DNA of 64,000 nucleotides. It comes from Gnetum montanum (taxonomy: Eukaryota > Plantae > Gnetophyta). The stretch spans positions 509,920 through 573,919 of the forward strand of contig MNCI01002560.1 in NCBI GenBank assembly GCA_015680685.1, read 5' to 3'. This document shows, one piece after another, positions 1 to 62,948 of the stretch; within the stretch, counting starts at the first letter, position 1; every line of letters starts with the position of its first letter. The translations under genes and the position numbers were made by a program. The notes below the pieces were generated by a model. The model was given only the letters and a program-made list of their open reading frames with translations. It ran no database searches and was not told the DNA's origin.

Positions 1-2074
1 ATCCATCCAAAACTTAACCTTATTGACATAGTTTACCCAAAAAATTCATTAAAAATTCATATGATCTCTAATTTTAGTTATTTTACTATGGATAGAATCA
101 TGAAATCATAATTTTTGTAGCCATGACTGTTACAACCAGAAATACATAACCGTTTTTACGTGGAATGTAAACAACTTAGCAAAAAATTGCAACTATCACC
201 ATGAATTCCATTTTGCATAAGGTTGGTAAAAATTTTGCCAACAATTCATTTGAGTTCAAAATGGAGTGATTCCATAATTATTTGAAAGATTATATTGATC
301 CCTAAGCATCCATGTTTGATAAAAATTTAGAATGCTTGTTGTTTATGCAAAAAGCATTCACCAATTTGGATAAGAATCTGAAAATAGTATAAACCTCCTT
401 TTAACCTAGGTTTAGCAAAAAAATCATAAAACATTCACTTTAAAGACAATTGGAGTGATTCCACATCCATTAGAAAGCTGAATCCAATACCTACCTAGTG
501 ACAGGTAAGAAATAGGAAATACTTTGGTTGTTTTCTTAGGAACAATTTGTGAATTTACATAAAAATATAAAAATAGCATAGAAGCCTAACTACATGACCT
601 TAGGAAAACAACCATAACTTAACCATTTCAAAGTGAAATCAAATTAGATAACAACCATTGGAATTGAAAAATATGTAGCAATTTTCTTAGAAGAAAATAT
701 GAAACATTGCTTGCATTTTTCATCTAAAAAGTTAAAATGCTAAAACCCAATTTAACATAGCCACGAAAACATAGCCAATATAGTTGAAAAAATCAATACC
801 CATTAGAAAATATATGAAAAGTATGGGATAGGGTTTCATTGAAATTTAATTTTGATGAATATCTTAGCCTAGATTTGAGAAAAATGCCCATACCCCTAAA
901 TTTTGAAAAAAAAACCATGAAAAAGACAAGCTTGATTTTAGAAATCAAATCTACGAAAGATACAACAACAAAATGTCTATGGATATATGTAAAAATAGTA
1001 AAAAATAGTGGCATTTTATTAGAATTTGATTTTACCCCATCTATTAGCATAGATGTAAGAAAAAATGGCACCATAAGTGGTAAGAAAAATATAAAAAGTA
1101 ATAAAAATAGCTAGAAAATAAAGCAAAAATAGGTAGAACTGCCTACCTTGGAGTAGAGATAGATGAGACTTGGATGAAGATAGGTGAAAGAAATTCTATT
1201 AGGTCTCTAGCATGTTCATCCACCTTTTGAATCATTAGATTCTGGCTCTTTCCTCCACATTATTTTAGTGCGATGGTAATCTCAATGTAGGGAGTGGTGT
1301 GAAATTAAGAAGGATGAAAGTTCAATGTTGTGTGCAAGAAACATGGGAGGCTTCCATGCTAAGGATGGGTTGCTTCTGCAACAAAAATATTTTCCAGAGC
1401 TCTATTCCAATGTTTAGTTTGCAAGAATGTTATTTATGATTGAAAACTTATGAAATTTGGCATTAAAAACTACATCTAAACCTAGATGGCCATGTCTAAA
1501 ATCCAGCTACTAATTCAGTGCACCATAACTCTAAGTGCACTAAAGTGAAAAAGGAAAAAAGTATTTTCCATGCTGGTTTTGGTGGAAAATAGCTTCACTT
1601 TTCAAATTTTAAAATATTTGGGTTGTGGGCTTTACTATACATCTTTCCTCTTAGTCAGGAATCACACCAATGCTGGGTTTTAGTCCCTTAGGCATCTAAA
1701 GCCATAACCAAGCCTTAACCTTCCATGCTTGGATGCTAGGTATACCATGCCTTCAACTTTTTAAAAAAATTAAATAATAACTATTTTCCATTTTTAGTAA
1801 TTAAGACTTATCTTTTCCAACCCCAAGCTTCCAAAAAGGGATGGAACATAGACAAATCTAGGTAAGTTAGGCTTGCATGTTGATGTAGTAGTGCCAAGTG
1901 TGGAATAAGAGTGGTAACATCCATTCTTCACCTTCTAACATCAATCTAGCCCAATGTTAACCCCTATATTAGGCCTACATGGCCTAGAAGCCCTCCAAGC
2001 ATCCTTGGTAGCCCCAGAACCTTAGCAAACCTAGTCAAAATTGTTCAAAGCTAGTCAAAACCTTGGAATTTGAT

Positions 2075-4770
2075 GTTTTCACACTAGGATAGGCTTCATC
2101 AAGGTTGATCATCTCATCCCCAACATGGATAGGTTGGGGGAAGCTATAAATAACCTAAATTATTTACTTAGTAACCATTTATCAAAGCTTGGTGATTCGT
2201 AGACCCTACTAGAACTCTTTGAAGCATCTGAATGCTTCATAAGTAGTTAAATATTGCACAAGAATGTCATCCTCCTCTCATCCTTGCTAGGGCCATCATT
2301 TCCAACATTGAAGAAATGATGAGACTACATGAGGAACTTAGGAACCTCCAAACTATTGGATCTTGACACCCAATATTGATTGTCAACATTGATAACCTTG
2401 AAGACTAACATGCATGATCGATTGAGTGTTGAACGAGCATAGATCTGACTTTCTTAGCTCTTCTAGACTAGGGGAGATCTCTTCCATGCTCCCAACATGA
2501 AAAATTATGGGTATTTGCTAGTAAAGTTAGTGAAAGATCCAAAGACTGAGAAAAGAACCTCAAATTACCTTGTTCCTAACACTAGAACCTTCATAGTCCT
2601 TCTAGATGCCACTAGATTACAAAGAAAAAAAATCAACCTCCTAAGGTTCTTCCATGCTGGGAAGGATCTCCTCCATGATAAGAATTTAAATATTAGTGTG
2701 GATGGAAGGGGAAATGCCAAAACTATTGAACATGACATGTAGTTTAACTTTTGGTAGCAACCCAAACCTTTTGAAAGCCAACCGACTTTTGAAAGTCACT
2801 TGAAATGATCAAAACTTGCTCCATTGGGTTTTTCATGCAAAGGAAGATTCCATTCATGCTAAACATCGTACCCTCAATGTGGATGAAATGGGAAAAGCAT
2901 TAAGACCATCTCATAGCCCTCAAAATGTCAAGATCTCTACCCTGGACATCGGTAGTGAACACCAACAACCCTATGGACATGCATGCATAGTCAAAACTAT
3001 CAAAAGCTAGTAAAACGTAGGCTCTTCTAGTTTCTCCACACTAAGATATTCATCCTCCATGTTGGCTAGTGTGGAGGAAAGGGGAAACATTTTGAGGAAC
3101 ACCAAAATAACCCTCAAATACCTTAAAAAAATGCTAGAAAGCCCTATCTGTGTTGTAGGAATCTGTCTCCTCATCCTAGAATCCTAAAACCCTAGGAAAG
3201 TAATCATAGATAGCCAAAAAATATTTTCCACTAATATTTTCCACTAATAATGGAAACCCTAGTATGGAAAAATGTGAGAAACATCAAAAATCATTTCATA
3301 ACCATTAAAATAACTAAATTTTAATACTAGGTAGCATCAATCAACATTAGCAACCTTTGCAAGCTACATGCATGGCCAGAAATGGTGTAAATAATCAAAA
3401 AGATACTTCCTCTAGTATTCCATTCTAAGAATACTATCTCCCATGTTGAAGCTTAAAAAACCATTTAGAAAACCTACAAATTTGCCAAGCTTGACCTCAA
3501 ACCCTAGTCCTTGACATTGACAACCTTGAAGGCACACATGCAAAATTGATTAAGGTTGAAATTGTCTAGATCTAGGATGTATTATTCTTTCACACTAGGG
3601 ATATCTTCCTTCATGATACTAATAATGGAAAGTTAGGGGCAAAATAATTTAGGGCTCATAAACACCTCAAAATGACATCAAATGACCTTACATGCATTAT
3701 AGAACCATGGTAGTAGCTATTGAAGCCTTCAAATAATCAAAAATTGATGCCAGATGGTTAAAAAGTGGTTTCCCCTAGTCTTCCATGCTTAACTCTCTAA
3801 CCATATTGTTAAAAAAAAGGATAATTCTAAAGAACATGTGGAAGTACTCAAAATTACCAAATTTTAACATGAAACCATAGCCCTTGGCCATAGCAACTCT
3901 GAAAGTTGACATCCATAGTCAAATGTTATCCAAATTGGCCTAGATATAATATTCTTATCTCATCCATGATGGAGATGATTTCCTCCATGTTTGGTAGTGT
4001 GAAAAAAAAGTGGAAAGCTACTTTTCCACTTTGGATGACAAGAGAGCACTCACAGAAACCAAGGATGTATGCTAGAGAAGCCTAGGACCTCATAGCCTTA
4101 AGATTTTTCTTGATTGAACTCATCTTGACTTCCAGAAATCCATTTCCCATAATATTCCATGTTTTATAAACTCCCCCAATGTGGAAACATGTTGGGAGGC
4201 CTTAGGTACCCTTAAACAACATTCAAACGTGTACAAAATCAACTTGAAACTTGTAGAATCATGATCTATAGCCCTAGGGGCCTAGGAGCTTGGTCAATGT
4301 GCTTCTCAATCATCTTGAATATAAGAAATAATTCCCCCCCTCATATTTCCATGTTGGGGATACTATAATTAGTGTGGAAAAGGAGGAGATGCTTTTTAAA
4401 CATATTTTGACTTAAAAAATTACCTTAGACTACCTCAAAATGAAGCTAGGGAATGCATAACTCCTAGATCTGAGTTCCAGCTTCCTATTTGACCATGTTT
4501 GATTTAGTTTTGGCTTGAATCCTGGTTCTCCACACTGAATGCCCTATCTTCCACACTGAGAATCATGGAGATAAGAAGGGAAGGGTTCAAAACCTTTTTT
4601 TTAGACTTTATAGATCTCTGGAGTGCCCAATTTTAATAGATTTGGCCTTGTGCTACCTTGCAGAGGTCCTAGAACCTCAATTTTTGGCCTCTAGATGCTC
4701 CAGAACATACTTTCTCTAATTTTTATGATAAGGGTCACTTCGTTCACATTGACTAGTGTGGAAACAAGGG
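2075..4770. repeat. ~190-bp-period array of TCCA(C/T)(A/G)(C/T)TRG motif clusters (element A)
   Basis: Clusters at about 2079, 2461, 2651, 2820, 3035, 3226, 3408, 3588, 3781, 3963, 4145, 4335, 4529 and 4712, with diverged spacers. Confidence 0.7.
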
Positions 4771-5478
4771 GGGCCTAATGTGAAAGCGATAAAACACTTG
4801 ATTTTTAGGTCCAAACAATCTAGAAGCAACCCTGACTGATGTCCAAACTTACCTAATAGCCTTGTAGCCTTAAATCATGGCTTGATAAGGTTTAAAACTA
4901 GTAAATTGTAATAATTTTTTGACCTATATTATCCAAATTCTATCATATGTAGCCTATTTTGCTTGATTTTTGCTTTATTACATTGTGTTTTAGCCTATTT
5001 CTGGACTTGTGTTGCCATTGTTAACTTTGTAGACCTTCTTGTGGCCTTTATGTAGCCTCATATTCTATTTATTTATCTTATTATAGCTTTATTTACCTTT
5101 TTTTGCCTTTTAATATATCAAATAATGGGGTTTGACCTTCCTTAACCACCATTTAACACAATGTGATCATGGCCTGCTTAGGCCTTAAACTAGCATCATA
5201 GTCCACCAAGATTCTAAACTGGCATCATGGCTTGCTAAGGCCTAAAACTGGTGAAATTGTGGCCTTTGTTAATCATTTGTAGCCTTATTTATTATATTTT
5301 CCCTTTTTTGACCTGTATTCGATCTTTGTTTAACATTTATTCAACTTTGTCAAATTGTTCCTATCTCATTGATGACCTTGGATGGCCTTCTTTACATTAG
5401 ATTTGCATGTATTTGCATAATGTTATAACATTTGAGCATTATTTATTTAATTTTACGTAGATTTCATATAATATCCTT

Positions 5479-8400
5479 TTGGTTGATATGTGGGATCAAA
5501 GTATGAGTACTTGGGAGAAAATTAGTTTGCCTTTGTATCTACATGGATCTCATGATCATGTTGAATGTTGTATTAATCCTAATTGCCTAGATCTTGAGCT
5601 TCTTGTGCATCACATAGCCTCAATTAAGAGACCTTTAGAATGGCTTGAAAATGTAGTCAAAACATTTAACTTAGAAGTAGGTTACATAACTAAATACTCT
5701 CTAGTTGAGGATCCTATCACAACACACAGTAATGAGGAGAAAACTAAGTTCCTCATTGGAACCTCAATGTGCTCAAGACATCACCAAGGTCCTACAAAGT
5801 AACATTAAGGTATTTTCCTAGTCATATGAATACATGCTAGGCCTAGAACCATGTTTATTCTAGTACAACATCATACTAGGCGCTAGCATTAGACTAGTTA
5901 AGAAAAATTAAACAAAACTAGGCCTAATTTGGCCTTGGTAACTCGTGATGAGATCTCAAAGCTCTACCAAGCTGATTACATTAGGGATGTCAACAACGCC
6001 AACTGGGTATCCAATATAGTGATAGTCCCTAAGAAAAATTGGAGTATTCATATTTGCATTGATTTTTGAGATCTAAATAAAGTAATCATCAATGATAGCT
6101 TCTCTTTGCCTAGTATTGATAAACTTAACGATACTATGGCTAGACATTCCTTATTATCCCTTATGGATGAATTCTCAGGATATAACCAAATTAGGATCAA
6201 CCTAGTTCAGCAACTTAGCATGGTCTTTATGATCCCATGGGGTACCTTTTGCAATAATATGATGTCATTTGACATTAAGAATGTTGAAGTGACCTATCAA
6301 TGAGCCATGACCTATATATTCAGTGATTACATGTTAGGTTTACTTAACGATTACATAGATGATATAGTTGTGAAGTTTAAAGTGATCAATGATCATGCTA
6401 ATGACCTAGACCTTGTTCTTAAACAATGCCATAAATATAAGCTTAGATGCAACCCCAAGAAATTTTCTTTGGTGTTAAGAATAGTAAGATGCTTAGCTTT
6501 GTAGTCTCTGAAGTAGGAATATGCATAGATCCTAATAAGGTTAAAGCCATATCCAAATTAGCAACACCTACAAACATTAAGGAGCTTTGGGTATTGCATG
6601 GTAGATTACAATTTATTTTTAGGTATATCACTAGGCATATAGATAAGTTACAGTAGATGCAACTCTTACTTAAGAAAGGAGTTCACTATGAGTGGATTTC
6701 TTAATGCCAAGGGGCCTTTTAAAAAACTTAAGCAAGAGTTGAGACAACTATTGATAGTTTATTTTTTGTAAGAGTGTAAAAAATTCTACATTTACCTTCC
6801 TATCTCTGACACATCCATTGCCTCTCTACTCTTTCAGAAGCATGATGATGGAGTAGAAAAGCTAGTGTACTATCTTAGCCATGCACTAGCTACCCATGAG
6901 ACTTGATAAATTGAAGTGAAGAAGTATTTTCTAGCATTGGTCATCTCTTTTAAGAAGTGGAAACACTACCTTTTCAGAAGCCAAGTCAATGTCATTTACA
7001 AAGACAACATACTCAGAGTCATAAAGACTAACATTTACTAAAGTAGCCATATAGCCTAATGGAAAGCCATAACCATGGAATTTGACATTCATTACTTCTC
7101 TCAATCCTCAACAAAAGGTCAAGCTATAGCCATACATAATAAAAGTTTTCTTGTCAATGACCAAGCAATGATAGATCTTGAATTCCCTAATAAACACATT
7201 AACCTAGTGCCAAATACCCAAGGATGATGAGGTGATCATGCACTTTGATAGAGCTTCAACTACTTGTGAGACTAGTGCTATTGCCATCATAACATTTCCA
7301 TTTCATGAAATTGATCCTTTTCCTATCATTTTGAGTTTCCATGTACCAACAATGTATTGGAGTATGAAGGTTTGATCAAAGAGATGATGGTAGCTCTTAA
7401 TCTAGGAATTAGAAGCTTAGCAATAAAAGGCAATTCACAACTTGTGACTAACCAAGGAATCAAAGTCTATGCATGTAAAACCAAATACTTACAATAATAT
7501 TGTGACTTAGAAAATTAATTGTTACAATAATTCATAGACTTTCATATTGAAAACATACCCAAAAATGTGAATCCCATAGTTGATGCAATAGTAATGATAG
7601 CCCTTAGTGTGATGCTAGATGTGTTTAATAAGTTTCCCATATTATCTATGAACATTGCTACTCCCATCACGTAGAACACTAAGGATGCCTTTGTGGTTGT
7701 TGTTCATACTAATCTTGCCATGGAGTGGTATGATGATATCAAATTTTACATTATGCATGGAGAATTATCACAAGGTTTGAGTACTACTCAAAAGGACCCT
7801 ATATACTAGTGGATGAAATGCTACATCATCATAGGTGATAAAACATTGCATTGAAAATCCTATGATGGCATACTCCTAAAGTTCATAGGTAAGATAGAAG
7901 CTAGAAGAGTCCTAGAGGAGGTTCACAAGGATATTTGTAGAGAACATATAGGACCATGAGCTATGGCCACTAAGATTATATGGTTGGGCTAATATTGTCC
8001 TTATATGGAAAATGACTACCTAGAGAAAGTTAAGCAATGTGACACATGCCAACAATATAGAAACCTCATACATGTACTACGAACTGAGTTGCATACAACT
8101 CAAATAAGATGGCCATTCCAATCATGAGGCTTGGATATCATTGGACCCATAACATCTAAGTCTTCCATAGGACATAGCTTCATCATCACCAAAACCAAAT
8201 ACTTTACAAAGTGGTTTGAGGTAATTCCCTTAAGAAAGACTACATCCAAACAAGTCTAGAAGTTCATCCTAGATAACATTGTAGCTTGTTTTGGCATACC
8301 CATGATCATAGTTATGGAATATAGACCATAATTTAGTATCTAGGAAACAAATAATTTCTATCATGACCTACGCATTAATCATTCTTTCTTATTATCGTAT

Positions 8401-8965
8401 TACCATAAAGCCAATAGGCAAGTAGAAGAAACAAGATCATCATTAACTTACTCAAAAATATTCTCAACAATAACAAGCTCAAATGGCATGAGCAGCTTGT
8501 CCTTACACTATGTGCATATAGAACAACCTATCACATAGCAATTGGTATGACCCCTTATAACTTGGTTTATGGTTTTGATGTTGCTTTATCTCTTGAATTA
8601 TATAGGTTCCATTGCTCTGAGTAGCCTTGATCAACTTCATCAATGAAGAGCAAAACAAGGAGTTGTAAACAATAGCCCTAGACTCTATGGAGGAGCAACA
8701 TATGCAAGTGCTTACTCACATTAAACACTATTAAGAGAGGTAGAAGTGGCAACATCATCATAACTTAATCATAAATAAGATCAAAGATGATGACTTGGTC
8801 ATCAAAGCCATTCACTAAGATATGGATAAATTATTAGTTAACTAGGAAGGACCCTTCCTCGTCACTAGAGCTTATGGTAACAAAGCATTCAGGATAGTTG
8901 ACATGGATGGGAATGAGCTAGTCAATCTGGTTAATCATTCCTATCTAAAGCCATACTACATGTAG
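5479..8965 (+). pseudogene. pol: RT-RNaseH-aRH-integrase (pol) pseudogene of element A
   Basis: RT motifs PSIDKL..LSLMDEFSGYNQI, YIDDIVV; aRH MHFD.AS / TNNV.EYE.LI / G.SQLV.NQ (~7240-7460); integrase GLDIIGPI...YFTKW; ends LKPYYM*; many stops and frameshifts; no gag or protease directly upstream. Confidence 0.92.
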
Positions 8966-9174
8966 CCAATAATCATCAAGAAATCATAGTTTCAATGGTC
9001 TTCTAGGGCCTTAAACTAGTACCATTCCATGCCATGGCCTTAAACTAGTGACTTTAGTGACCTAGCTAACTTTTTGTTATCATCTCATGTAACCTATATG
9101 CATTATAGTGTTATAATATGCAATGGTGTTTTGTATTCTTTGTCGGTGCCTCTCCTATTAATCCCCAAGACATT

Positions 9175-9186
9175 GAAAAATAGGGG
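9175..9186 (+). promoter_or_regulatory. Polypurine tract of element A
   Basis: GAAAAATAGGGG ~210 nt after the integrase stop, immediately before the LTR-like block. Confidence 0.65.
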
Positions 9187-9189
9187 CCA

Positions 9190-10681
9190 TTAAAACACCA
9201 CAAAAATTTGAATGTTATAGTTAATTTTCAACATGTAACTTTCACCCCATAAAACTTGAGGTAAAACTTCATTGTAAATGTGAAGATTGTAATCCATGGA
9301 GGGCAATCTCACATATCCCATGATTTTGGGGCTAAAAGACACCTCATAAGTGGTCAAAGATTCATACCCTTAGTGAACAATATCATTAGTATCTATACTC
9401 AAGCTTAGGAACATCAAAATCACCTTTTGGAATGCCAAAAATGGTAGTTTAATGGGTTTTATTGAGGTATATATTTTTCTACACTGGAAACACTTCTGGG
9501 GGCAAATCTCACCTACTCCTATCATAGAGGAGTGGGGGGTTTTCCCTTAGCTTGGAAATGTTTTTTCCTAGTGTGGAAACTACATGACCCCATCATGGAA
9601 GACACAAAAGTTAGATTTTAACACTTCATGCCCTTGAATGTTGACCAATTATTTCAGCTAGGATGGTAGAAGGTTCAGCATGGATGATCTATCTTCAACA
9701 TAGAAGGTCTGCCCTCATTAATCTTTATAGGAAATGTAATGGTGATGGGGGAAGGAATTTACCATATAGAGTAAGCCTCAAAATTTTGGCACCCATCTCA
9801 TCTATATGAGAAAAAAATTTGCAACTAAATTATAACTAATTTGCATTCATTATGCAATCAAATTACAACCAAATTACAGGCATTTTGTAGCACGATTCAT
9901 GATCCAAAATCTATAAAACCTAGTCTCAAACACCATTTATAGGTTTAGAAACTTTTGACATACATACACTTTTGTGGTTTTAACAATTTTTACATAGTTC
10001 AGTAATTTGTTCATAGTTCTACACTTGAGCATTCTCAAGCACTTAAGAGTTCTTACAAGTTTCCACACTTGTACTCTCTTGAGTTTAGTGTAGAAACCTT
10101 CTAACCTTGTGATATTGTAAAATCTTTGGGATTTGTAAATTTTCAAGCTTCATGTTGCACTATTGGGATTTTCAAATCCTAGAGTAGAGTACTTGAGTAG
10201 CTTAGATTCTTCACACTTGTCAATCTTTCATCATAGCCAATGTTGCAGATCTAGAGTAGCAGCATAGGAGGTTTGATAGCATCAGGAGTGGTAGAACATC
10301 TAGCTAGTGGAGTTGACTACAGTGACTTCAATAAACCTTGAACCCCCATTAAAGTGAATCCCCCCTACTACCCACTCAAGCACCATTTGTACACATTTCT
10401 CTAACTTGTTATGTATCCTCTCTTAATAAAGTTTTAAGTCCTCAATTTTGTATGCAAAATATATTTTTTTAGCTTCAGTGCATTATTTATATCTATTATA
10501 AGTTTTAGCATTCAATTTTTATTACTTCGTTATTCATTTCGTGAGTCCCTGGTTGATCTACTAGACTAGCCAAGGTCTCTCAAATCCCATTTTCCTAGAG
10601 GCCTTGAGTATTCATGGGTTAAGGACTCCTACGCATCAGATCAATCGATCTTTCTAGCAATTGATTTTTCTAGTCACAACA
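9190..10681 (+). repeat. 3' LTR of element A
   Basis: Begins ttaaaacaccacaaaaattt, matching the reverse complement ending at ~37694; TATA-like ctataaaa at ~9911; ends ...cacaaca where element B's integrase resumes. Confidence 0.65.
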
Positions 10682-13600
10682 CATCATACATAGCTCCTTG
10701 CTTTATTAATAATTGATGAAGTTAGACAGGCCCTCTCAAAGAAATAGTACATGTAATTCAAGAGGTAAAATAGCTTCAGAACCATAAACAAGGCTATACA
10801 GAGTTACACCTATTGTAGTACAATATGTTTCTCGATATTTTCAAACTGCATGGAAAAGCTACTCATGCTACTTGCATTTACTATTATTTATCATCTTCTT
10901 AGGTAAGTTGATAATGGACTTATTACTTGCTTCTAATTTTCCATTGGCTTGAGGGTAATAAGGTGAGAAGAAAGAGTGCTTAATGTCTAGGTTGTGAAAG
11001 AAATTTTTTATTTCTTGGCTACTAAACTATGGTCTATTGTCTATGGCTATGATCATAGGTATACCAGCATGGGCTACTATATTGTCTAGGATGAATATAT
11101 AGATTTGTTCATATGTAGTATTCCTTAGGGAGATAGCCTCAACCCACTTAGTAAAGTATTTGGTTATGGTAATGATGAAACTATACCCTATGGATGAGTT
11201 AGGCATTATATGTTTAATGATATCCAACACCCATCATTGAAATAGTCATGTTATCAGAGTAGTGTGTAACTTAGTTAATGGTACATGTACTAGGTTACTA
11301 TGCCTTTGACATGTGTCACATCACTTTCTACAGCCAATAATTTTCCATATAAGGCTAGTAATAACCTAACTATCTAATCATAGTAGTCATGGCTCTAGGT
11401 TCTATATGTCCACCATAAACACCCTCATGAACCTTCTCTAGGACTATTTTGGCTTCGGCTCTATTGAAGAACTTGAATAATATACTATCATAAGATCATA
11501 GACATAGTGTATTATCGCCTAAAATGACATATAATTTTGATCATTTATGTACAAAATCCTTTTGAACAACAGTTTGGCCTTGTGAAGACTCACCATACAT
11601 AAGGTAAAACTTGATATCATCATACTGCTCCTTTATAGGAGTGGTATGAACTACAACAACAAACATATTCTCAACACTTTGCATGATGGAGATAGCACAA
11701 TTCATGGTTAAGGTGGACAACTAGCTAAAAACATTTGATGTAACACTAAGGGCTAGCATTGCAATTGCATTAGCTATGGAATTCTCATTTTGGGATACAT
11801 CTTAGATAGCAGCATCTATAAATTGTTGCAATAACGGTTTCCATAAATCATAGTAAGGTTGTAAATGTTTGGCTTTGCATGCGTAAACCTTGGTTACTTG
11901 GTTGACGAAAAGTTATGAATTTTCCTTAATTATCAAATTCTTAATTCATAGGCCATGAGCTACCATCATTCCTCTAATCAAACTTTCATACTTTGCTATG
12001 TTATTACTGCATGGAAACTCCAATCGATAGGTGAAAGATAAAATTTCACTCGATGAGAATGTTATGATGGAAAAGACACTAGCTTTGTGGTCAGTTAAAG
12101 CTCCATAAAAGTGCATGAGGCACCCATAATCCTTGAGCACTTGGCTAATGACATTGATGTGTTCATCAAGAAACTCAAGGTCAATAATTGCTTGGTCATC
12201 AATAGGTGAAATAGTAAGTTGTACAACTATAACTAGACCTTTCGTTGAGGAATAAGAGACTTAATGAAGGTCAAATTCCATTGTTATGGGTTTTCATTGG
12301 GCTATATGGATACTCTCATAAATATTGGTCATTATAGCTCTAGGTATGTTATTCTTGCAAATGACATTAACCTGGCTCCTAAAGAGGTAGTATCTCTACC
12401 TCTTTAATGAGAAGACTAGTGTTAAACAATACTTCTTCAATGAGAAGACTAGTGTTAAACAATACTTCTTCACTTTAGTATATCATGTCTCATGGGCAAC
12501 TAATGCATGGATAAGGTACTATACTAGCATCTCTACTCCATCATCACATTTTTGATAGTGTAGAAAGGTAACATACATGTTTGAGATAGAAATATAGATG
12601 TAAAATAATTTACTCTATTGTAGAGTATAGATTGTTAGTAGTTGTGCCAACTCTTGCTTAAGGATTTTAAAGGCTTCTTTGCATTGAGTCATCTGATCAT
12701 AGTGAACCCTTTTCTTAAGCAAGTATTACATGGATTGCAAATTATTTGTAAGCATAGTGATGAACATTCAAATAAATTGTAATATACCTTGTAGTCCCTA
12801 AAGCTCTTTGAGGTTAGTTGGTGCTACCAAGTTGGAGATGGCCTTAACCTTATCAAGATCAACATGTATCCTTGCTTCTAATACTACAAAGACAAGAATC
12901 TTATTAGTTTTGATACTGAAGACATAGTTCTTAGGATTAGGTCTATGTTCAAACTTAAGACATCATTTGAGAACAAGGTCTAGGTCATTAGCATGGTCAT
13001 TGGCTAGTTTGGACTTAACAACTATGTCATCTACATAATAGTTGAGGAATCCTAACATGTAGTAACTAAAGATATAAATCATGGATCTTTGATAGGTTAC
13101 CCCTAAATTCTTAAGGCCAAAATACATCATGGTATAGAAAAAGGTATCCCAAAGGTTGTGCTAAGTTAGTGCTCTAGTTTGATCCTAATTTGGTTGTAAC
13201 TCAAGAACCAATCCATAAAGGATAATAAGGCAAGGCTAGCTATAGTATCAATGAGTTAATGGATACTAGGCATAGGGAAATTGTCCTTTATCGTTGCCTT
13301 ATTTAGGTTTTAAAAATCAATTCAAATATAGATACCCTCATTTTCCTAGGGACTACCATGATGTTGGATACCCATTCCATGTAGTCAATAGCTCTAAGGA
13401 AACTAGCTTGGTATAGCTTGGTAATTTCATCACAAACTTCCATTGCTATGTTTGGTCTAATCTTGGACATTTTCAATTTAACTAGTCTAATTATAGGATC
13501 AAGTAAAATGTTGTGTTGGACTAATTTTGGATCTAAAACTAGCATATTTTCATAAGACTAGGCAAAGGCCTTATTGTTGTCTTGTAGAACCTTGGTGATG

Positions 13601-13900
13601 GCTTAAGTTTGTTGAGGTTCTAATGAGGAACATAGTTTAAGGATTTTCTCCTTACCACTATGAATTGTTACAAGAACCTCATCAAGAGAGTGTTTAGTAA
13701 TGTCACTAGCTCCTAGATCAAGATTTTTAACTAGGTTTTCAAGCCACTCTAGAAGCCTTTCAATTAAGGCTACATTGTTAATAAAAATCTTAGGCTTAAG
13801 ATCTAGATAATCAGGATCAATATATTGTTCAACATCACCATTATGCCCACTTAGGCTGAAAGGTAAGGTAATTTTGTCCAAGTGTCCAAAATTCAATCAT
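10682..13900 (-). pseudogene. pol: RT-RNaseH-aRH-integrase pseudogene of element B, truncated in the integrase C-terminal region
   Basis: ORF fragments LDPKLVQHNILLDP..., MHFYGAL...FPCSNNIAKYESLI, LDII...YFTKWVEAI; homologous to 5479-8965. Confidence 0.92.
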
Positions 13901-14377
13901 GCATATTAATCATAATCACATTAAGTGGAACCTAGGTAAAAATGAGTAAATAATGGTAGAATGATTTAGTAAACATGCAAACATATGATATTCCAATGAT
14001 GAACAAAAGTGAAAACAAGGTCAACCAAGGCTATGATAGACAAATAATGACTAATGGGATTAAACAAAGGGCACATAAGATTAATCAAAGGTCATAAGAG
14101 AGAAAATAAGGTAAACATGATAAAATAGGAAGTTATATGAAGGTTGTATAAAGTAAATTAATGAGAAAGAAGTTCAACAATGCAAAACAAGGTCAAATTT
14201 GTGAAAATGAAATACATATGACAAAAATTGTTTGATACTGGTCAAATAGGATTATATTTTACCAATTTTAGGCCTTAGCGGGCCATGGTATGGGATTATA
14301 GGGTTGCTAAGAGAGCTTGGGTAGATGCGTGTGTCATTCTAAAGCTATTTTGAAGCAAAATTAACATATTTTACTTT

Positions 14378-17300
14378 GACTATGCTAGGCCCTACTAGTG
14401 ACTAAGCTAGCCTAGCATAGTCCTACCTACCTATAGCATAGTTAACCTTCAATGGTAATTTATAGGGATTGAAATGGTCATTTTTGAGCTCCCACTAGGT
14501 TAAACAACTAGCATAGTGGTAGGTATAGAAAATTGGAAATTTTTGACACCATTTTGACTTTATATAAGGTTGAAATTCATGTTCCAAGAGGTGACTATGC
14601 TAGGCTAGTAAGCCTCAGCATAGTCACAAGGAATGACCAAGTCAAGACAAAGTGAAATTTTCTCTTGGATGGCCATGGGGACATGGTTTTGGTCATTCTA
14701 GGTTAATTGTAGGCCATTATGACTTGCTTACTATGAATTTTCATCACTACATGTTTCCTTCCAAGTGGGACTACACTAGCCTGACATAGTCCTTGGCCTC
14801 TGTAGCATAGTTATGAGTGGAAAATGGATTTTGGTGAGTTTTAGAGCTTGATCAATCATCCTAATGGGCTTTTGGGATTACTAGTGTTACCAGCTAGGGT
14901 TTTAGTGTAGAAATTATCAATTTTCATGCTTGTTTGGGCCTTGAATTCCAAAGGACCATAGGACTACATTAGGTATGTAGTTCCTAGCATATTCAAGGAT
15001 TGTAGTTGTAAAAGGGCTATGAAAGAATAAATTTTGGCTCATTTCCCAAGGTTCCAAGGTCTGGGCATGTTCTAACAATGTTCTATGTCTTTTTAGAAGT
15101 CAATTTCAGTATTTTTAGAGCTATTTTGGCCATGAACAAGTGGACTATAGTGGTCTTGGGTAGGGACTATGCTAGCCTAGTGTAGTCCCAATGCTTCCTT
15201 CAACATAGTCACATTGAAAAGGATGAAAAACTAAGTTTCTTTACTAAATTTAAATATGATGGGCCATGAAACTCCTATAAGTGTAGTTTATGTGATTTTG
15301 GTAAATTTTTGTAGAAGTTTACGTAGACTACGTTGGGCCTAGAGAGGGACTACACTAGCCTAGCATAATCCCAAATTTTTCTTATGTAGTCCATGCTCTA
15401 GAGGTCAAAAATTAAAAAAAATTATGTTCCAAAATCAGTCAAAATTCAAAGAGCCTCCAAGGTTCATTGATATGGAATTTGATATTTTTCTTTTGCAACT
15501 TGAGAATTTTAGTGGGGACTATGTTGGGGATTGAGGGGGGCTACATTGAGCTAGCATACGCCTAACTCATCCTTAGTGTAGTCATAGTTTGGGGGTTCAA
15601 GAATAGTGGATTTTAACTCAAATGTATGGTTTCAAAGTATTTTTGTGTCATAGAAAGGTCTTGTAGTTGATAGAGGTGTTTTTTGGGTTATATTTAGACT
15701 ACTATGAAGTTCATGGTGTGGACTACATTAGGCTTGGACTAAGACTACATTGATGTAGCATAGTCCTACCTTCTTACTAGTGTAGTCCAAGGATGGATGG
15801 TTATAGGGAGTTTCCATGGTGAACAAGGAGTTCCAAAAATGTTATAGAGTCAACTAATAGTAAACTAAGGTTATTTTGAGGAAACTTTAGTTCCTTTCTT
15901 GTGGACTACACTAAGCTTGAAGAAAGACTATGCTGGTCCAATGTAGTCCCAACCTTTCCTTAGTGTAGTCAAGGTTTTGGTAGTCAAAGATCATGAGAAA
16001 TTCAAGTTTTGAGATCACAGAGGCTTGGGTAGGCTTTCCAAGCTTGTCGATAGTAATTCTAGATCACATGGGATAGTTGTTGCATAGTTTATTGATGGAC
16101 TATGACGGGCATTAGGAAGGGACTACATCAGTGTAGTGTAGTCATCCTTCCCTCTTAGCATAGTCCAAGTAGGAATGGTCAAACTAGGTGTAAACAACAA
16201 GTTTTTGATGTTAAACTAGCTAGGATAGGGTGTTAGGATTTCTTCAAGGTCAAACTTCATACATTTTTGGTGTGTCTTGTCAATTTCAATGAGACTACAC
16301 TAGGGCATATAAAGGGACTACACTAGCCCAATGTAGTCCCTCTTCCCACCTAATGTAGCCATTATCAAAATTGTTAATATGTGATAAAAGAGTAGGTTTC
16401 ATGATCGTATAGGGCCAAAATAGGGTATTGGGGTTGACTAGTGCTAAGTTTCATGATTTTTGATGTTTCTTGGTAGCCTTAGTGGAACTACACTAGGCCT
16501 TGGGTAGGGACTACACTAGCCCAACATAGTCCCATCTCCCCATCTAGGGTATTCCATGTATGGATGCCAAAAGTGTAAAAGTGGTAAGATTTGGCTAAGG
16601 TTGATGCTCCAGTGTTTTCAAAAGTTCAAATATAATTCATAGATGATGGTCTCTTGGGTTTTTTGAGTGGACTACACTAAGAAATCACTGGGACTATGCA
16701 AGCTCAACATACTCCTCATAGTCCTAAATGTAGTCACATGTAGAAACTTAGTTTCATGGGATTTCTTAAGGAGTTTTATTGATCAACTAGTACAATGGGC
16801 TTAGTAGGGATCTTGGAAAGGTATGGAAGCTTTTAAAGGTAGTGTTGAAGGTGGGTAAAGGTCTCTATGATGCCTACCAATCCTAGAACCTTAGGACTAC
16901 ACTAGCCTAATGTAGTCCCTAGGTCTCCTTGGCATAGTCATGGGGAAATGGGAAAAAGTGGCATCATTAATTATAATTGATCATGCCTCATGCTTGTCAG
17001 AGGCTCAAACTAGCATTTGGTGAAATGCTGTCAATTCAAGGTTAATTAAGGGTTGAATGGATTGGGATAATTTCTTGAGGTTGTAGGAGGTAAGATGTGA
17101 TGTTGGACAATGCTAGGTAGTAGTTGTGCTAGCCCAACATAGTCCTTCAGTTCTCTTAGTGTAGTTAATGAGGAGGCTTGATTCTTGTCACACTTGGAGT
17201 GCTTTTGATCTATTTTTGCTACTATCAAGGGTTCTAGATAGGGTTTGATAAGGTTGGGTAGTTAATTTGGAGGCCTTTAGAAGTTGTATGGGCTATTGGA

Positions 17301-17645
17301 AGTCCATCCCATTATGGACTACATTGGTAATAGTTGGGACTACATTGGCCCAATGTAGTCCTTATCCTCCCTTTAGCATGGTCACTATTATGTTGTCAAA
17401 ACCTCTCATACTTGGCCACATTCTTATGTTGTAGGGCATCTAATCCAAGGTTTAAAGAGATAAGGTAGATGTGGTAGTTGTTTTATATATTAAGGTTGAC
17501 TACTCTTAATGTAGTCATGGCTTGGAGGTTGACTACTCTTAGTGTAGTCATGGCTTATTTTCCATTCTTGGAGCATCCAGTATGAGGCCTAGGTAAAATT
17601 AGTAATTTTTAAAAAAATATTTACACAACTCTAGCATAGTCCTAG
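14378..17645. repeat. ~190-bp-period array of GACTACGCTG-N3-CAGCGTAGTC-derived palindrome clusters (element B)
   Basis: Examples: gactacactagcccaatgtagtcc and gactatgctggtccaatgtagtcc; cluster starts 15143, 15326, 15517, 15721, 15904, 16098, 16293, 16488, 16670. Confidence 0.85.
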
Positions 17646-19512
17646 TTTCCATTTTTGAAGCCAATTTAAGTAAATTTCTAAAAGGAAACTAGGGTTCTGG
17701 GATGGGCACCTAGGTTTGGATTGGTTTTAAATTGGAAAACTTGGAAAAATTCTTGTTATTTGTCTTACTTCTTGCCATTGTGGCTTGGTTTGAGAGCTCT
17801 ATTTCCATTGTTGTTGCCCACTATCCTACTCAGCATAGTACTAACTACTTTTAAACAATTGCTACTATAGTCTAGCTATTAGTGCCAATTGCCAACATAA
17901 TAATTATAGGCTTACCCAAAAACCAAGGATTTCGTACATTCCAAGACCTATTTCTAATACCATGGTGAAAAAAATAGCTCCTATGAGGAATCTTGCATTA
18001 AAGGTGATGGATGCCAATGTTGAAAGCCTACCATGTTTGCCTCATCCAGGAATTGAGAAGAGTTCTACCATCGTCTTTCCCAAGTTCATGATTCTCACCA
18101 ATATCTAATATTTTTCATGTATTATATTTTTCAAATCTATGCTTGTGTATTTGTTATTTTTGTTCATTTTGTGAAACTGCTACCTCATATTTTGGTCTTC
18201 TCTATGTAGATCTAAGGCCACTTGGTTTTTTTTTTTTTCCCTTGGTAGATTAGATTTTTAAAATATGTTTGTGGTTTTGGTGCTTTTTTCTAAAAATTTT
18301 GTGTTATGGCCAATTTTTCTAGGTCTACACTACAATGTTAAGAAAAATTTGATTTTAAACAAATCCAAACACTTTATTTTGAGGTTTCTTTAATGTGGGT
18401 ATGATTGTTTTGACTATTTTGACTAGATCAAGTTAAGTCTCACAAGTTCTCTATTTTGGAATGCTTTTTTGAGGAAAAAAGAAAGTAATGTTATATATTT
18501 TTTATTAAGGAAATATCTATAATTTTGCAAAATATAAGATTATTAATTTTTATATCTATGTTTAAGGTTTCTAATGGCTGTAGTTCCATTTGATTTAGAG
18601 TTCTAATGATAAAATTATGGCCATTTGAGTTGGGTTGTGTAATTAGGTTTCTTTGCTATTTTTCAGATTTCATTAATGTTTATAATTTTTTAAAAAAAAA
18701 ACAAGGATTTTTAATTTTTTATTGCATGGGTATGTAGGATTGAATTTAATCTTTCAAATGGTGGTAGAATCACTCTATTTTGAGCTCAAAAAAAGTTTAG
18801 TAATTTTTTTTGCAACCTTGTGTGAAAGAGTTTTCATGTTGATGGCTATGGTTAAGCCACCTTGGTAATTTTTTTGAAAAATAGGTTAGTATTTTTAATT
18901 ATTTATTATTATAGGTATATATTTTAAGGTTTTATGATTCCAATAGCTATGGAATCATCATATTCTATTAAGAAGTTAATTAGTTATGGTTGTTTCTATT
19001 TGGTTGCACAAAATCATGGTTACAAGGTTGTTACGCATATACCCCTATGAAGATGGGTAATGTGGAGATTGTAAAAATTTTTTCTTCATCAATTTCCCAT
19101 GATCTTGGGGATAGTTTAGGATGTTAGGGAGAGGCTAAAAGTTTTTTGGATGAAAATGAAATATTTTTCTTATTTTTTCTAAGTGTTTTCCGATGGCCGT
19201 ATTAGTGTTAAGTGTGAAATTTGGTTGAATGTTGGTTGTGGACATGGGTTGTATGTTGAATTTTTTCTAAGTGTAGAATTTTAACATGGAAATTGAGAAT
19301 TTACTCTTATACTTTTAATTTCATGTTTTTCGTCCTAAGTTATCAATTCAATGTTTTTTCTCGTAATTTATTATTTTACAACTTTAGTTCTAAAGATTCA
19401 TTTTATATAAGCTATTTCAAATTTTTTCTAAGTGTTATTTTCTATGTTTAATGATTATAAGGCTTTGGTTTTAAGTTTTCATGATTATAATTATTTTTGT
19501 TTGATGTTATAG

Positions 19513-22500
19513 GGCCTTCTTGAAGCCCATTTTGGTGGTAATAAAGATGTGGACTATTTTGTTACATTCACCTCCTCGAGCCTAACTCCCCAGTTCCTGA
19601 TATGGAATGGGATCAAAATAGGATATGGTTTAGGCCAAGCACCAAATAATTAATTGCATACATCTTAAAAAACATTAGTGTGATGGTATGATCACACTTG
19701 ATGACTGAAGTTATAGCAATGATTATAGAGACCATCCTACTTGGGTCTTTTAGCTTAATCATTGAGTTTTTGATGAATGAACTTGAAGCTCATGTGGAGG
19801 GAGTGAGAAAATGATGGCACTACTACTATGGATTCTCAAAAATTGTTAACAATTTGGGAGATGCTAAAATTTAGTCAATATTATATGGAAAACCATATAA
19901 TTGTTGGCCATCATGCTCATACATTATTTTAGAATCCTGTAGGAACCATTTATCATGTAGAGGGGTAAGTAAGGATTTTTTTGGTTTATGGTTAATTTCT
20001 ATAGTTGTAAAATTAATTTATAACAATTTTTTATTATTTCACTTGCTTATAGGTTCAAGATGGATGAGTGGTGCTTGATCAAAGATGATAACCTCTTACT
20101 GCAAACCCATATAGCTTTAGAGGTATTCACCAAAAGCCCAAATGTAAGGCTTGTAGTGTTGGAATAGATAGAAGGTGACATTGAAGCTAGCTCAAACATC
20201 ATTCTAAGGCTTATACGAGATGCCTAGGGAATGGCACAATGGATAGCTAATGGATCAACCCATATCTCAATGACTTAGACATAAGCCCACCCCCTAGAGC
20301 TCCTAAGATGCCTAAATCTAATAGGCAAAGTAAGTGCTTTTATGCTTTGTTGATTTTAAGTTTTTTGAATACTACCATTTTTCTAGTTATTTTGATTTGA
20401 ATTATTTAAGTAGTTTTATTTGTGTTTTAACTTAGTTAAATTTTTGTTTTACATGATGCACCTATGCTAAGATTAGTGAGATATCCTTTCATTATGTTGT
20501 AGAGGCCACTCCATCAGTTGAAGTTACTATTGTTACTTTAGGACATGCTAAAGAGATCCTAATACTTAAGTTAGTGAGGTGGAATTCTCATAGGAATAGT
20601 TATCAAAACACATACTTGATGCTATACAAGTGAGAGGCATACACGTGGGCCTATTTGACCTCTTCATTAACCCAAGCTTGATTGTTCCCACTGTAGAGAT
20701 GTTGAACATAAATAACTACTATAGCCAAGGGGTTAAAAAGTTGATCACTTATGTTGATTGTGTGACCATTGTTATAGAGGTTATTTTATCCATCTTCAAT
20801 GACCTCTTTGGCATTCCAAATAATGGCATGCTAGTTATCACCAAAGTAGGTAGGGAGTTGGATCACTGGGAGGAAGTAGATAAGTTGCTAGACACACATT
20901 TTTGTACTAAGGGATACTTTCTCAAATAGATATAGTCACCATTGATTAGAGAAATGTATTCCTTATTTTGATCCTAGGGATTTCCTAAATTATTATTGCA
21001 AGGGAAGATCTTGGGCTTGGAGTAAGATTGGACCATGAAGTAGGTGCTTACTAAGGATGCTTGTTTCAATTAGGTTGCACACTTGGTTTCTAGGATATAA
21101 TGGGAGATCAAAAAGCTTGACAACAACCTCACTATGTAGTGTTATGACACTTTGCACTTTTTGTAGCTTATTTATGAAGGTTTTTAGAGTTTCTAGTGGT
21201 GTGGAAGGATGGATGATAAGTTATCCAAGATCCATCCCAACTTACCAAACCTTAGGTGAATCTCCTTGCTCTAACCACATACACCTAGGACCTACTAGAA
21301 GCTATGGGTGAGTCAATGTCTATTGCTATCAAGGATATTACTAGTAGGCATTATGTATCCCTTGATAGCATGGGGGTAGAGCCTCTCACAATACCATCTA
21401 GCATCAAGAAGGCCTAAAAACTACATAAAGAGGCTAAGGGAATAGCTAGGACTAAGCTTAAGAAGCCTTTAGCATATGAACCAGTACTCATGATCAAGGA
21501 TCCTTTGAAGAAGCAATAGTTGACCATCAAAATGATAGTGTATGTCATGAAGTTAGATGTATGTTATATCTTGGTTTATTACTCTGTTAATTTGTTTTAA
21601 AGTTATGGTTTTAAGTTAGTTACATATCTTCTTTTAGATAAATCTTGCTAAGTTGTCCATGTTCTTACAATTAATGTTCTTGTAGATAAGTAGCAAGAAT
21701 GGGAAGCTAGGGCTATAGTGGCAATAGCTGAGGCAAGCCAAAGGTGTTAGGAGGAGGAGAAGCTACAACACTAGGAAGAAAAATACTGAAACATTATGAG
21801 GATGATGTATTGAAAAAAAATGACTTACCCCCTATTCCACCTATGGGCTGCTTTGTTGCCATGCTAGAGAATCCACAAATGAGTGAACATCTTATTGGTA
21901 TATTGTATGGTCTCTTAGGTATGTATGATCTTCGATTTTACATGTTACTTTTCATTGATTCATGCCTTTTTTTTTCTATGGTTGTTAATTACTTACTACA
22001 CTTGTTATAGCCCAAGAGCCTAAGGAAGAAGCCTTCACTTCTACCTTTCACAAGATACCATGGGTGGAAACCCCAAATAACTTAAATCTATGTGGGATGT
22101 AGCTAAAGATATGATTAACTACTTGTAGTAGATAACTCTTGAGATTGGTAAGAATTTTATCTCATTTTTCCTTTACCATTTTTTACATTTTTAGTCTTTT
22201 ATTCAATTTCCATGGTTATGTAGCTTTTTGTTACTACGTGATTTTATTCATTATACATTGCTTTATGTTGGTTAAAGTGCCTAAATTGACATGGGATCCT
22301 GACAAGCCAATGAAGGTTGATGCATCACCTTCTTTACCGTTTAATTTAGAGAATGTCCCACATGGGCTATATGAGGATGCCACTGGATGTGCACTCTGAT
22401 GTGCTAAGTCCCTATGGAAATGTAGATTCTTTAACAAGTTCCTATAAGAACAAGTTGTAGGATAGACCTCATGGACCATAGATACTTCATAGAAGTCCAA

Positions 22501-23220
22501 GTGGATAATAGAAACTTGTTGCGCACTAGGGATATAACTTGGGCTTGTTATTGGAGTGTAGTACAAGGAAAGGCTTTTCTTGTGATCTAAGTAGTATAAC
22601 ATAAGCTCCAAATTGATCTCATCAACCACAAGGTTGGTGAGTGGAAAGATTACTATAGTTGGTTCCTTAAGTGAGGTCATACACAAAAGGATCACAAACA
22701 AACATACAAAGCTGAATGGGATGCCTACCTGAACTAGCTAAAGGAGGAGTCTATGGAGCAATGTAAGCTAGAATTGTTCATGATGGGCACCAATGTAGAA
22801 GAGGTGTATAAGATGTTTGTAAAGAATGTGATTGTAGATAACTCCCCTATTCATTAGGTTACTATTTCATCAAGGGAAACATCCACCACCACGTTCTTGC
22901 ATGAACCTCCTACATGGAGTGACATTGATGGGACTAATATCCTAATGAGTATTGATCTTGTAGAAATGGATTGGGCCAACATGTCTAAAGACCAAATCCC
23001 CCACCATGTAGAGTTTGGTCTTCAAAACTTCCTTAAAGCACATGTAGTTCCAAAACCATATTAAGTTTTCTTACTTTTAATTTTATTTTTTTTGTTTAAG
23101 TTATTTATTTTGTCTTTATATGTATTGGTTACTAATCAATTATGTGTTACCATGTTAGACGTACTAGAAAACATTGGTGGCCCCAGTGGTGAGGGTGAAG
23201 ATTACACTATATCTCCTTAA
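19513..23220 (+). pseudogene. Antisense ~7-exon accessory gene of element B (decayed; product unknown, one exon resembles plant-transposon accessory proteins)
   Basis: GT/AG-bounded AT-rich introns; exons about 19513-19964, 20053-20329, 20503-21550, 21686-21918, 22011-22147, 22278-23060, 23159-23220; protein-level and splice-site conservation with 59501-62948. Confidence 0.75.
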
Positions 23221-24538: not shown

Positions 24539-24553
24539 TACCCCCATGACTGA
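24539..24553 (-). promoter_or_regulatory. Polypurine-tract-like motif adjacent to the 3' LTR
   Basis: Minus strand TCAGTCATGGGGGTA immediately precedes the 3' LTR; same core at 25142-25154 and 26589-26601. Confidence 0.7.
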
Positions 24554-26550: not shown

Positions 26551-26569
26551 AACTGAGGGCCCCATATGA

Positions 26570-29914: not shown

Positions 29915-30041
29915 TTCTATTGGTGTGCTAACTTCACCGTTATTTATTGTTCTTGATTAACTGATTAACCCTAAGGTTCGTTTTAAGCTCACAACGATGT
30001 GAGTGATATCCCTTATGTTAAATTGGCGAAAAAACACTTAG

Positions 30042-31017: not shown

Positions 31018-31031
31018 ATATGGCGGTGGGA

Positions 31032-34800: not shown

Positions 34801-35314
34801 TGGACCCTACATGGGTGGTTAGTGGGTGTGTAGTAGTGATAACCACCATTGATGAATATATAGATTAGGGCCATGTGGGAAAAGGCATAAATAATTTTAT
34901 AGTTGTTGGTTATGAAATTAACTAGATCTAATGCTTGGCTATGACTAACATGGGTTTAATTGTAATAGGGTAGGAGGGGGTAGAAGATGATGACACCATG
35001 CCCATGGAGAATACAAAGGCATTAGGGAAAGGCTTGGTGGCCTTGGAACTCACTTGTTGGAAAAACACACCTAGGATGTTTTTGAGCTTAAATTATATCC
35101 TAAACTCATCATTTTCTTCTTGTTGTTCCTCTGAGTTGCACTTTTCATCTTCCTCTCCCATCTCAATCAATTTAGCTAGGATGCCAGCATAGACATCGTT
35201 GAGGGGTATTTGGTCATATAGGAAAGGGATATACTCCTTTCCACATTGGTGTATGAGCTGAAACTCCCTTTTGGGTTCTACTTTCACACATGGAATTAGA
35301 GTGCCAAAATGCAT
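31860..35314 (-). pseudogene. gag: gag-protease pseudogene of element B
   Basis: gag core LLGKSLNYYHALPRGSISS...LMKVKQG; YH..LGH...ALKDNL..MID motif (~33460-33540); protease RMHVDDGTVTNVIP and FNLILGRPWL (~32220-32480). Confidence 0.85.
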
Positions 35315-62500: not shown

Positions 62501-62948
62501 GAAGAGACTTGTTCATTTGGGGGATCTAAGAAGAGAGTACTTATTAAATTTTCAAAAGTACCCTCATAGTGAAGCAATCCCATACTAGGATTACCTCTAC
62601 TCCAAGCAAGACCTTCATAGCTATTGCTACCTGGGAGACTCCTAATTGGAATCCTATAGATACAACTAGCATCCTCTTTGGCATTGATCTTAAGGATGAT
62701 GACTAGGTCAACATGATGGAGGAATAGATCCTCCATCATTAGGAGGAAGGCTTTCCACTTCTACCCCAAGAAATCATGGAGTTAGAATCTCCATAGGTTA
62801 GATGTATTTTATGATTTAGTTTCTGACTTATGGTTTTGATTTTGGCTATTGGTTGCTAACTGGCTATATGTTGTTGCATTTTAGGCTTCAAAAATAATTG
62901 ATGGCCCCAATGGTAAAGGTGGGAATGACCCACCATTTCCTCCCTTAG
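59501..62948 (+). pseudogene. Element D: second copy of the multi-exon antisense accessory gene
   Basis: PWVETP, VP..WD...M.VD..P.LP.N...P..LY..AT and F..LFG blocks plus splice sites shared with 19513-23220. Confidence 0.75.

Follow-up and report, generated by a model that had tools for sequence, protein, structure and literature searches.

A nucleosome-length lattice of palindromic half-sites beside an antisense accessory gene in a decayed Tat-type retrotransposon

Results

Organization of the locus

The DNA analysed here, a window of 64,000 nucleotides from Gnetum montanum, is a nest of plant LTR retrotransposons (Table 1). Element B, read on the minus strand, consists of an LTR, gag-protease, a gap of approximately 10 kb (the length left after subtraction of a young insertion at 23299-31260) and pol, whose RT begins at 13641. 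The gap between protease and RT contains an array of short sites, an AT-rich block and a multi-exon antisense gene, with the array upstream of that gene. The gag was recognized by eye only and had no gag match in Pfam. In B and in element A, which cuts B pol within the integrase, Pfam places RVT_3 after RT_RNaseH, the arrangement of the Tat clade of Ty3/gypsy. The order RT, RH, aRH, INT found in B with Pfam and tblastn is that of the Ogre lineage and of Retand (PMC6317226). In Ogre elements, too, the archaeal-type RNase H stands after RNase H and before integrase (PMC4408406; PMC6317226), and a non-coding gap, spliced as an intron, parts their gag-protease from pol (PMC4408406). The nearest database pol proteins are 24-39% identical to the decayed query. 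Scans of viral contig and metagenome contig collections gave no match.

The coding sequence of B pol starts at an AG (13932-13933) directly behind a T-rich tract, a candidate splice acceptor, and element A has an acceptor-like counterpart at the matching place before its pol (5431-5460, with the AG at 5459-5460). No splice donor in matching phase was found. Because pol starts in this way at the matching place in both elements, and at the known position of the Ogre intron, B pol probably lacks a promoter of its own. The same start makes doubtful the original prediction that the array is a bidirectional enhancer between two divergent genes. The AT-rich block is a candidate promoter region of the accessory gene. 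Upstream of the pol of element C, only 2-3 candidate half-sites of the kind described below are left (42113-42440).

Table 1. Features of the window discussed in the text.
Feature	Position	Strand	Remarks
Element A lattice	1350..4785	.	Layout and repeat lengths similar to B; different word; more decayed
Element A pol, decayed	5461..8966	+	Domain order same as B; 71% identical to B pol
Element A 3' LTR	9089..10638 (start approximate)	+	Enriched for the A word
Element B pol, decayed	10639..13931	-	RT, RNase H, archaeal-type RNase H, integrase (Pfam, tblastn, homology with A)
Candidate splice acceptor, T-rich tract and AG	13932..13960	-	Directly before B pol coding start; splicing predicted from sequence
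Element B lattice	14378..17645	.	About 16 clusters with up to four half-sites each (2 forward, 2 inverted)
Example of a complete four-site B cluster	15904..15970	.	Gaps 12, 3, 12
AT-rich non-coding block	18127..18957	.	Common to A (267-1062), 61% over 855 bp
Element B accessory gene, decayed, multi-exon	19551..23066	+	Runs antisense to both gag and pol; collinear protein similarity with copy D
Element B gag-protease region, decayed	31880..35000	-	Protease 32157-32759 (tblastn, E 4.8e-11)
Element B 5' LTR	36036..38610 (ends approximate)	-	Homologous to the 3' end of element A in collinear blocks
Element C pol, third relative	39142..41950	-	Pfam, tblastn
Accessory gene copy D	59540..62980	+	Exons collinear with the B copy

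The antisense accessory gene

The second copy of the accessory gene, copy D, probably belongs to element C across nested insertions, a link drawn from gene order. Element C thus keeps a homologue of the accessory gene, yet it has almost no array. In the three blocks compared between the B and D copies, identity by codon position was 47/57/32% (193 codons), 60/72/32% (60 codons) and 59/79/56% (34 codons). Since third codon positions are the most diverged in all three, this is a real accessory gene, which, to judge from the codon pattern, was under coding selection between B and D.

A Pfam search of the decayed accessory copies found no match to PMD, DUF1985, Transposase_28 or Transposase_32 and nothing else informative. 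Homologue searches with the accessory protein were empty or spurious and found no relatives outside the window; one phmmer match, P0001, was rejected as a repetitive unrelated ORF. Against the PDB no match fell below E=0.1 (the best, at E=0.11, was unrelated), the Atlas gave no usable match, and the AlphaFold model (pLDDT 35) was unusable. By eye, the core exon resembles Transposase_32/ATHILA-type accessory proteins. This identity is not claimed, as Pfam did not confirm it. A heptad pattern in the last exon, suggestive in copy D only in a rough scan without a control, was set aside.

Word, clusters and decay of the array in element B

The array is composed of a 10-bp half-site whose pre-decay form would have been GACTACGCTG. 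Strict decayed half-sites number 42 within 14378-17645, against a mean of 0.39 and a maximum of 3 in 200 dinucleotide shuffles. Outside the array, eight more lie in 36550-37450 (shuffle mean 0.12, maximum 1), the remaining ~58 kb of the window has six, and there are none in the B accessory gene or in its upstream block. A cluster has two forward half-sites followed by two inverted ones; 11-13 bp separate the members of each pair, and 3 bp lie between the pairs. When complete it measures 66-69 bp, with a purine-rich left linker and a pyrimidine-rich right linker. The three-site pattern has seven matches in the window, all seven within the B array, and none in 100 shuffles. With 16 cluster centres counted, two of them partial (14604 and 14973) and placed by hand, the predicted number of about 16 palindrome clusters agrees with our count, and the predicted layout of half-site, palindrome and inverted half-site was recovered as the four-site unit with its 3-bp inner gap. 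The spacing of 182-204 bp that had been reported holds for most of the array (183-204 bp in 12 of 15 values); the full range is wider, at 176-227 bp.

The half-sites have decayed in a regular manner. Among 48 half-sites from 12 units, the CG now reads CA in 26 and TG in 17, and is still CG in one; the CTG reads CTA in 24 and TTG in 12, and is still CTG in one. The changes go to one product or the other and almost never to both, as expected from deamination of methyl-cytosine on a single strand, and this bears out the C-to-T and G-to-A decay proposed earlier. At the five positions of the half-site that cannot be methylated, 225 of 240 cells (94%) are kept in the same 48 half-sites. CpG observed/expected is 0.05 in the array versus 0.11 in pol; the array is as decayed at CG and CHG as pol is, and the copy in the window therefore shows no protection.

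Outside the half-sites little is shared among units. Identity between pairs of B spacers is 51%, against 49% after shuffling, while half-site identity is 72% against 37%, so that the spacers are the more diverged part, as predicted. The conserved half-sites and near-random spacers indicate that, prior to the decay of this copy, the spacers diverged and the motifs did not. Homology along the full length of the unit is absent save for a faint trace in the spacers.

That trace bears on the reading of the array as a plain decayed internal satellite without function, of a kind often seen in Tat, Ogre and Retand elements; about half of the Retand clusters contain internal arrays (PMC11963269). Of 36 B-B and 55 A-A spacer pairs, 19% and 13%, respectively, align at z>3, compared with 1-4% in controls, which makes a tandem origin likely. 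However, the preservation of the half-sites beside spacers near saturation is not what a plain satellite would leave, and Tandem Repeats Finder does not detect the B array. This reading is largely refuted, also by the phasing described below.

A second array with another word

Element A has its own array, which is placed with respect to pol as in B. Its word, with the probable pre-decay form TTCCACGCTG, has the core ACGCTG in common with the B word and a different 5' part. The strict A word occurs 16 times in the A array and never in the B array, and the strict B word, present 42 times in the B array, is absent from the A array. The arrays themselves cannot be aligned (longest match 18 bp); the flanking DNA aligns on both sides. 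Direct pairs are 21 bp apart in A versus mostly 22 bp in B, and the inverted gap is 1-2 or 12-13 bp in A, two values one helical turn apart, versus 3 bp in B. A fixed 2-bp inner gap considered for A was dropped, as A uses both classes of gap. The comparison is between two arrays in one window, with the accessory gene of A lying beyond its edge.

The words recur in the LTRs as lone half-sites. Relaxed B half-sites number 14 in the B LTR versus 1.4 expected (reached in 0 of 100 shuffles), and 12 of the 14 lie within 36605-37426. The four LTR sites named in the original prediction (36960, 37102, 37141 and 37282) are all present, and the enrichment over background that it implied is also seen with strict sites (8 versus 0.12). 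The A word is enriched in the A LTR (11 versus 1.6 expected; 0 of 100 shuffles) and the B word is not (1 versus 1.0). In its relaxed form the A word is also enriched in the B LTR (8 versus 2.5; 0 of 100 shuffles), seven of the eight sites having a mismatch.

These distributions bear on the source of the binding protein. The main rival to an element-encoded binder is that a host factor occupies the lattice, which would then serve as an enhancer or insulator, and that the accessory gene is a mere neighbour. Drosophila gypsy, which has an array of Su(Hw) sites, offers an analogue. The common core of the two words and the enrichment of the relaxed A word in the B LTR speak for a host factor, as does the fact that no DNA-binding domain was detected in the accessory protein by Pfam or in its unusable model. 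On the other hand, each family has its own 5' part of the word in all copies, strict cross-matches between the arrays are absent, and the two pair geometries differ in a way that would be unexpected from a conserved factor. We therefore regard a host factor as unlikely, although it is the strongest of the competing explanations. A word that switches family-wide, recurs in the LTR and has an accessory gene next to it suggests a binder supplied by the element. On this pattern we lean towards a binder that is encoded by the element and changes with the word.

Helical and nucleosome-length phasing

Repeat lengths in B are quantised in helical turns, falling at 183, 193-195 and 203-204 bp in steps of ~10.5 bp. 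Starting from 15165, the spacings between the 12 complete inner palindromes are 183, 191, 204, 183, 195, 195, 193, 183, 203, 227 and 216 bp. At 10-11 bp these 11 values give R=0.80 with p=0.0007; partial neighbours led to the exclusion of two palindromes, at 14400 and 14769. Quantisation was also found for all 15 B spacings (R=0.71, p=0.0004) and for 13 A spacings between model-fitted centres (R=0.78, p=0.0002). Subtraction of 147 bp from the repeat leaves mostly 34-36, 43-48 and 56-57 bp, which are mostly 10n+5-like linkers, and linkers are known to favour 10n+5 lengths (PMC2522279; PMC12642524).

The spacers have a rhythm of their own. After removal of the motifs, AA/TT power locked in phase to the clusters reaches, at 10-10.25 bp, 4.2 in nine B spacers and 4.7 in 11 A spacers, against 0.37 (B) and 0.35 (A) in shuffles, none of 200 of which reached the observed value, and a 95th percentile of 1.29 in control non-coding DNA. 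In an anchor-free version of the test, in which each motif site was its own anchor, 0 of 300 nulls reached the observed value in either array. AA peaks lie at ~41, 51, 61, 72 and 82 bp outward from the cluster centre in A and B alike, SS steps run in counter-phase to them, and G+C is maximal mid-spacer. Nucleosomal AA/TT/TA positions have been published as 8, 18 ... 79 ... 139 with the dyad at 74 (PMC2522279), and the AA peaks match them for a dyad ~97 bp from the cluster centre. In 7 of 9 B spacers and 7 of 11 A spacers, the best-fitting dyad is no more than 21 bp from mid-spacer. Single spacers are unexceptional as positioning sequences (1 of 20 above the control 95th percentile), and the ~10-bp AA/TT rhythm, the SS counter-phase and the linkers near 10n+5 expected of a nucleosome-positioning array are present collectively only. 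A dyad placed on the palindrome was disfavoured (score -5.0 to +0.1). In terms of sequence, the AA/TT phase is as expected if a nucleosome lies mid-spacer and the palindrome in the linker. The helical quantisation and the phase-locked rhythm thus lend support to the nucleosome-length phasing of the original prediction.

Length changes in whole helical turns, and an identical AA phase in two families whose arrays cannot be aligned, are further evidence against a functionless satellite. They also bear on the possibility that the clusters are RNA hairpins in the unspliced genomic RNA, either as an intronic export or packaging signal or as a source of small RNA like the Sirevirus LTR palindromes. 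The array does lie in a presumed intron, and four of six tested B units fold at z < -2.8 on the sense strand of the element. However, any palindrome folds, and the two A units tested fold unremarkably. No covariation between the arms was found: in 12 units, folding is no better for native arm pairs than for arms swapped among units (p=0.37 and 0.32), and the left and right linkers have no complementarity within the unit (p=0.76), both tests being weakened by decay after insertion. The half-sites in the LTRs stand alone, an Rfam search gave no match, and helical quantisation with a 10-bp rhythm is a property of duplex DNA. Hairpins are thus highly improbable. Quantised repeats, phased AA/TT and the separate word of A argue for selection on double-stranded DNA geometry rather than for a plain decayed satellite or an RNA hairpin, and it is very likely, from these sequence properties, that such selection acted here.

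Another duplex-based explanation is that the ligand of the lattice is Gag or integrase, as a core protein of the element, or that the lattice simply makes the DNA bent or ordered, for example to steer integration or to package DNA, and plays no part in silencing. A-tracts in phase bend DNA whether or not nucleosomes are present. Elevated 10.4-bp AA/TT autocorrelation, moreover, reaches into the neighbouring non-coding DNA of A and C. Nevertheless, the repeats cluster at 181-204 bp with the G+C peak mid-spacer, the phase fits a core particle between clusters, and bending by itself needs no conserved palindrome. We consider this explanation improbable.

Discussion

In this study, we estimate at about 0.5 the probability that the lattice is a set of docking sites in nucleosome linkers, probably for the antisense accessory protein of the element, that counters silencing as a VANC-like, family-specific chromatin platform. 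A unit of ~190 bp would have been tandemly duplicated long ago, and selection would then have preserved no more than the word, the helical face on which it lies and the AA rhythm, which is what a DNA-binding protein acting on chromatin would impose. The nucleosome dyad would lie ~87-107 bp from each cluster centre, so that the inner palindrome would fall within linker DNA and the outer half-sites would sit on the final turn of the core. The accessory protein may dock in the linkers between positioned nucleosomes and so keep the chromatin of the element usable. By analogy with VANC and PMD proteins, binding is predicted, at close to even odds, to oppose silencing or to activate the LTR and accessory promoters. 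The decay of the array, the near absence of an array in element C and the lack of strict B sites in the B accessory gene and its upstream block weigh against this reading.

The motifs bound by VANC proteins are specific to each family and lie in introns and non-coding parts of their own transposons (PMC5735166). As in the VANDAL elements of Arabidopsis (PMC5735166), short motifs that differ between families are massed here, in both A and B, in non-coding DNA that is probably intronic, and in B they lie beside an accessory gene. However, VANDALs are Mutator-like DNA transposons, whereas the carrier here is an LTR retrotransposon. The VANC motifs quoted are words of 8-9 bp in dynamic tandem repeats, nucleosomes, spacing and palindromes are absent from the main text of that paper (PMC5735166), and the accessory gene here gives no DUF1985 match. 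PMD proteins, which have the VANC fold, associate with motifs, one of them palindromic (10.1101/2024.09.27.615353), and many Tat elements carry PMD as extra ORFs (PMC4408406). The MAIN/MAIL1/MAIL2 proteins similarly belong to a transposon-related family that is tied to specific motifs and opposes silencing, with a PMD-A clade that is encoded by retrotransposons. They are, however, host genes acting at single promoter motifs (10.1101/2024.09.27.615353), and the present gene has no PMD match.

Among retrotransposons, the closest systems are Ogre and Retand. The extra ORFs described in the survey sections cited for Ogre relatives are located 5' of gag in sense or 3' of pol in antisense orientation, and often encode PMD or Tr28 (PMC4408406; PMC6317226). 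In contrast, the gap of ~10 kb in element B holds both an antisense multi-exon gene and a lattice; where Ogre elements typically have an extra sense ORF at the 5' end, usually PMD, that of element B is antisense and located between protease and RT. In Retand, an antisense TRP28 ORF lies next to family-specific arrays, for which a regulatory role has been proposed, but those arrays are built of tandem repeats of 8-100 bp and are located past pol, before the 3' LTR (PMC11963269). The array here has units of ~190 bp with near-random spacers and lies upstream of pol. The CENP-B box is also present once per nucleosome-length unit, the 171-bp alpha satellite, among divergent monomers; its arrays are centromeric, of megabase size, with 50-70% monomer homology and a host protein (PMC7463522), whereas the present array covers 3.3 kb of a mobile element with four sites per unit and near-random spacers. 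Sirevirus palindromes are likewise found in the regulatory DNA of LTR retrotransposons. They belong to Copia elements, are confined to the LTR and are read as hairpins and siRNA hotspots, and the abstract of that work does not mention a nucleosome-length lattice (PMC4728375).

Parts of this picture are already known, since internal repeat arrays and antisense ORFs have been described in Retand and other Tat elements (PMC11963269), and VANC motif arrays in VANDALs (PMC5735166). A literature search that covered main texts and few subscription papers turned up neither an antisense gene between protease and RT nor a plant retrotransposon with a nucleosome-phased lattice of sites. In many large plant genomes, much of the DNA is taken up by the extra ORFs and internal arrays of Tat, Ogre and Retand elements, and the survey sections cited assign these features no known function (PMC4408406; PMC6317226; PMC11963269). 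The present locus joins the two in a precise prediction, with a 10-bp word, a nucleosome geometry and a second word as a specificity control. Should the binder be the accessory protein, counter-silencing of the VANC type would extend from DNA transposons to retrotransposons and may help to explain the amplification of retrotransposons in giant genomes with heavy methylation. The array would be a natural design for a nucleosome ladder even if the binder came from the host.

A fuller scenario, which we regard as possible at clearly worse than even odds, is that what is probably a non-angiosperm Tat lineage made the Ogre-type intron into a self-contained chromatin module for sequence-specific, retrotransposon-borne anti-silencing. 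Such a module would combine an antisense spliced gene with a DNA-encoded ladder of ~16 nucleosomes, four cognate sites straddling each linker, and word and protein would change together. Another element in the window has its archaeal RNase H before the RT, the order reported for club-mosses and gymnosperms (PMC6317226), and this makes a host outside the angiosperms probable. The window holds that order together with RT-RH-aRH-INT, which the survey sections cited report only in angiosperms (PMC4408406; PMC6317226).

Possible junction of elements B and C
Between B and C, two of the related Tat/Ogre-type LTR retrotransposons, lies a stretch without any match. A purine tract in this stretch immediately precedes the B LTR, and the integrase of C is truncated nearby. 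Given these two features, B and C may be joined, either in tandem or via recombination. Short near-identical duplicates adjoin N gaps over the rightmost third of the window, which suggests local assembly errors there; the putative link between C and D, the second accessory gene copy, spans this zone.

Other elements and repeats
The young insertion carries LTRs that are 98% identical and contain repeats rich in GCGATATCGC, and it is flanked by a 5-bp target duplication. It holds a single intact gag-protease ORF of 1128 aa, and pol is absent from it. In a younger Tat element the archaeal RNase H precedes RT; PMC6317226 reports this arrangement from lineages of club-mosses and gymnosperms. The weak Transposase_32 match marks an accessory gene of another element.

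Positions of the features in the window
Feature	Position	Strand	Remark
33-bp duplication	17493-17556		edge of B array
Young insertion	23299-31260		
Stretch between B and C	38611-39140		
Region upstream of C pol	42000-45500		
Transposase_32 (PF20167)	44920-45150	-	weak; E=0.003, under curated cut-off
AT-rich cluster	45980-46560		
Duplicates beside N gaps	52344-52572, 58395-58690, 54911-54991		
Younger Tat element	53200-57750	-	

Motifs and periodicity
In each copy of the 33-bp duplication (96% identical), the palindrome formed by the B word, the half-site motif of the palindrome array in B, is shortened. Upstream of C pol, AA/TT autocorrelation at 10.4 bp is raised even though few motif sites are left. 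The AT-rich cluster consists of direct and inverted ATCAAT/ATTGAT repeats that bear no relation to the lattice words. A short GGCCTTAAACTAG-type motif recurs on the sense strand of the elements (5181, 9007, 9036, 31531, 63346 and 63505); in A, B and D its sites lie downstream of gag-protease, ahead of the pol exon and beyond the pol stop, and it is possibly an RNA or processing signal.
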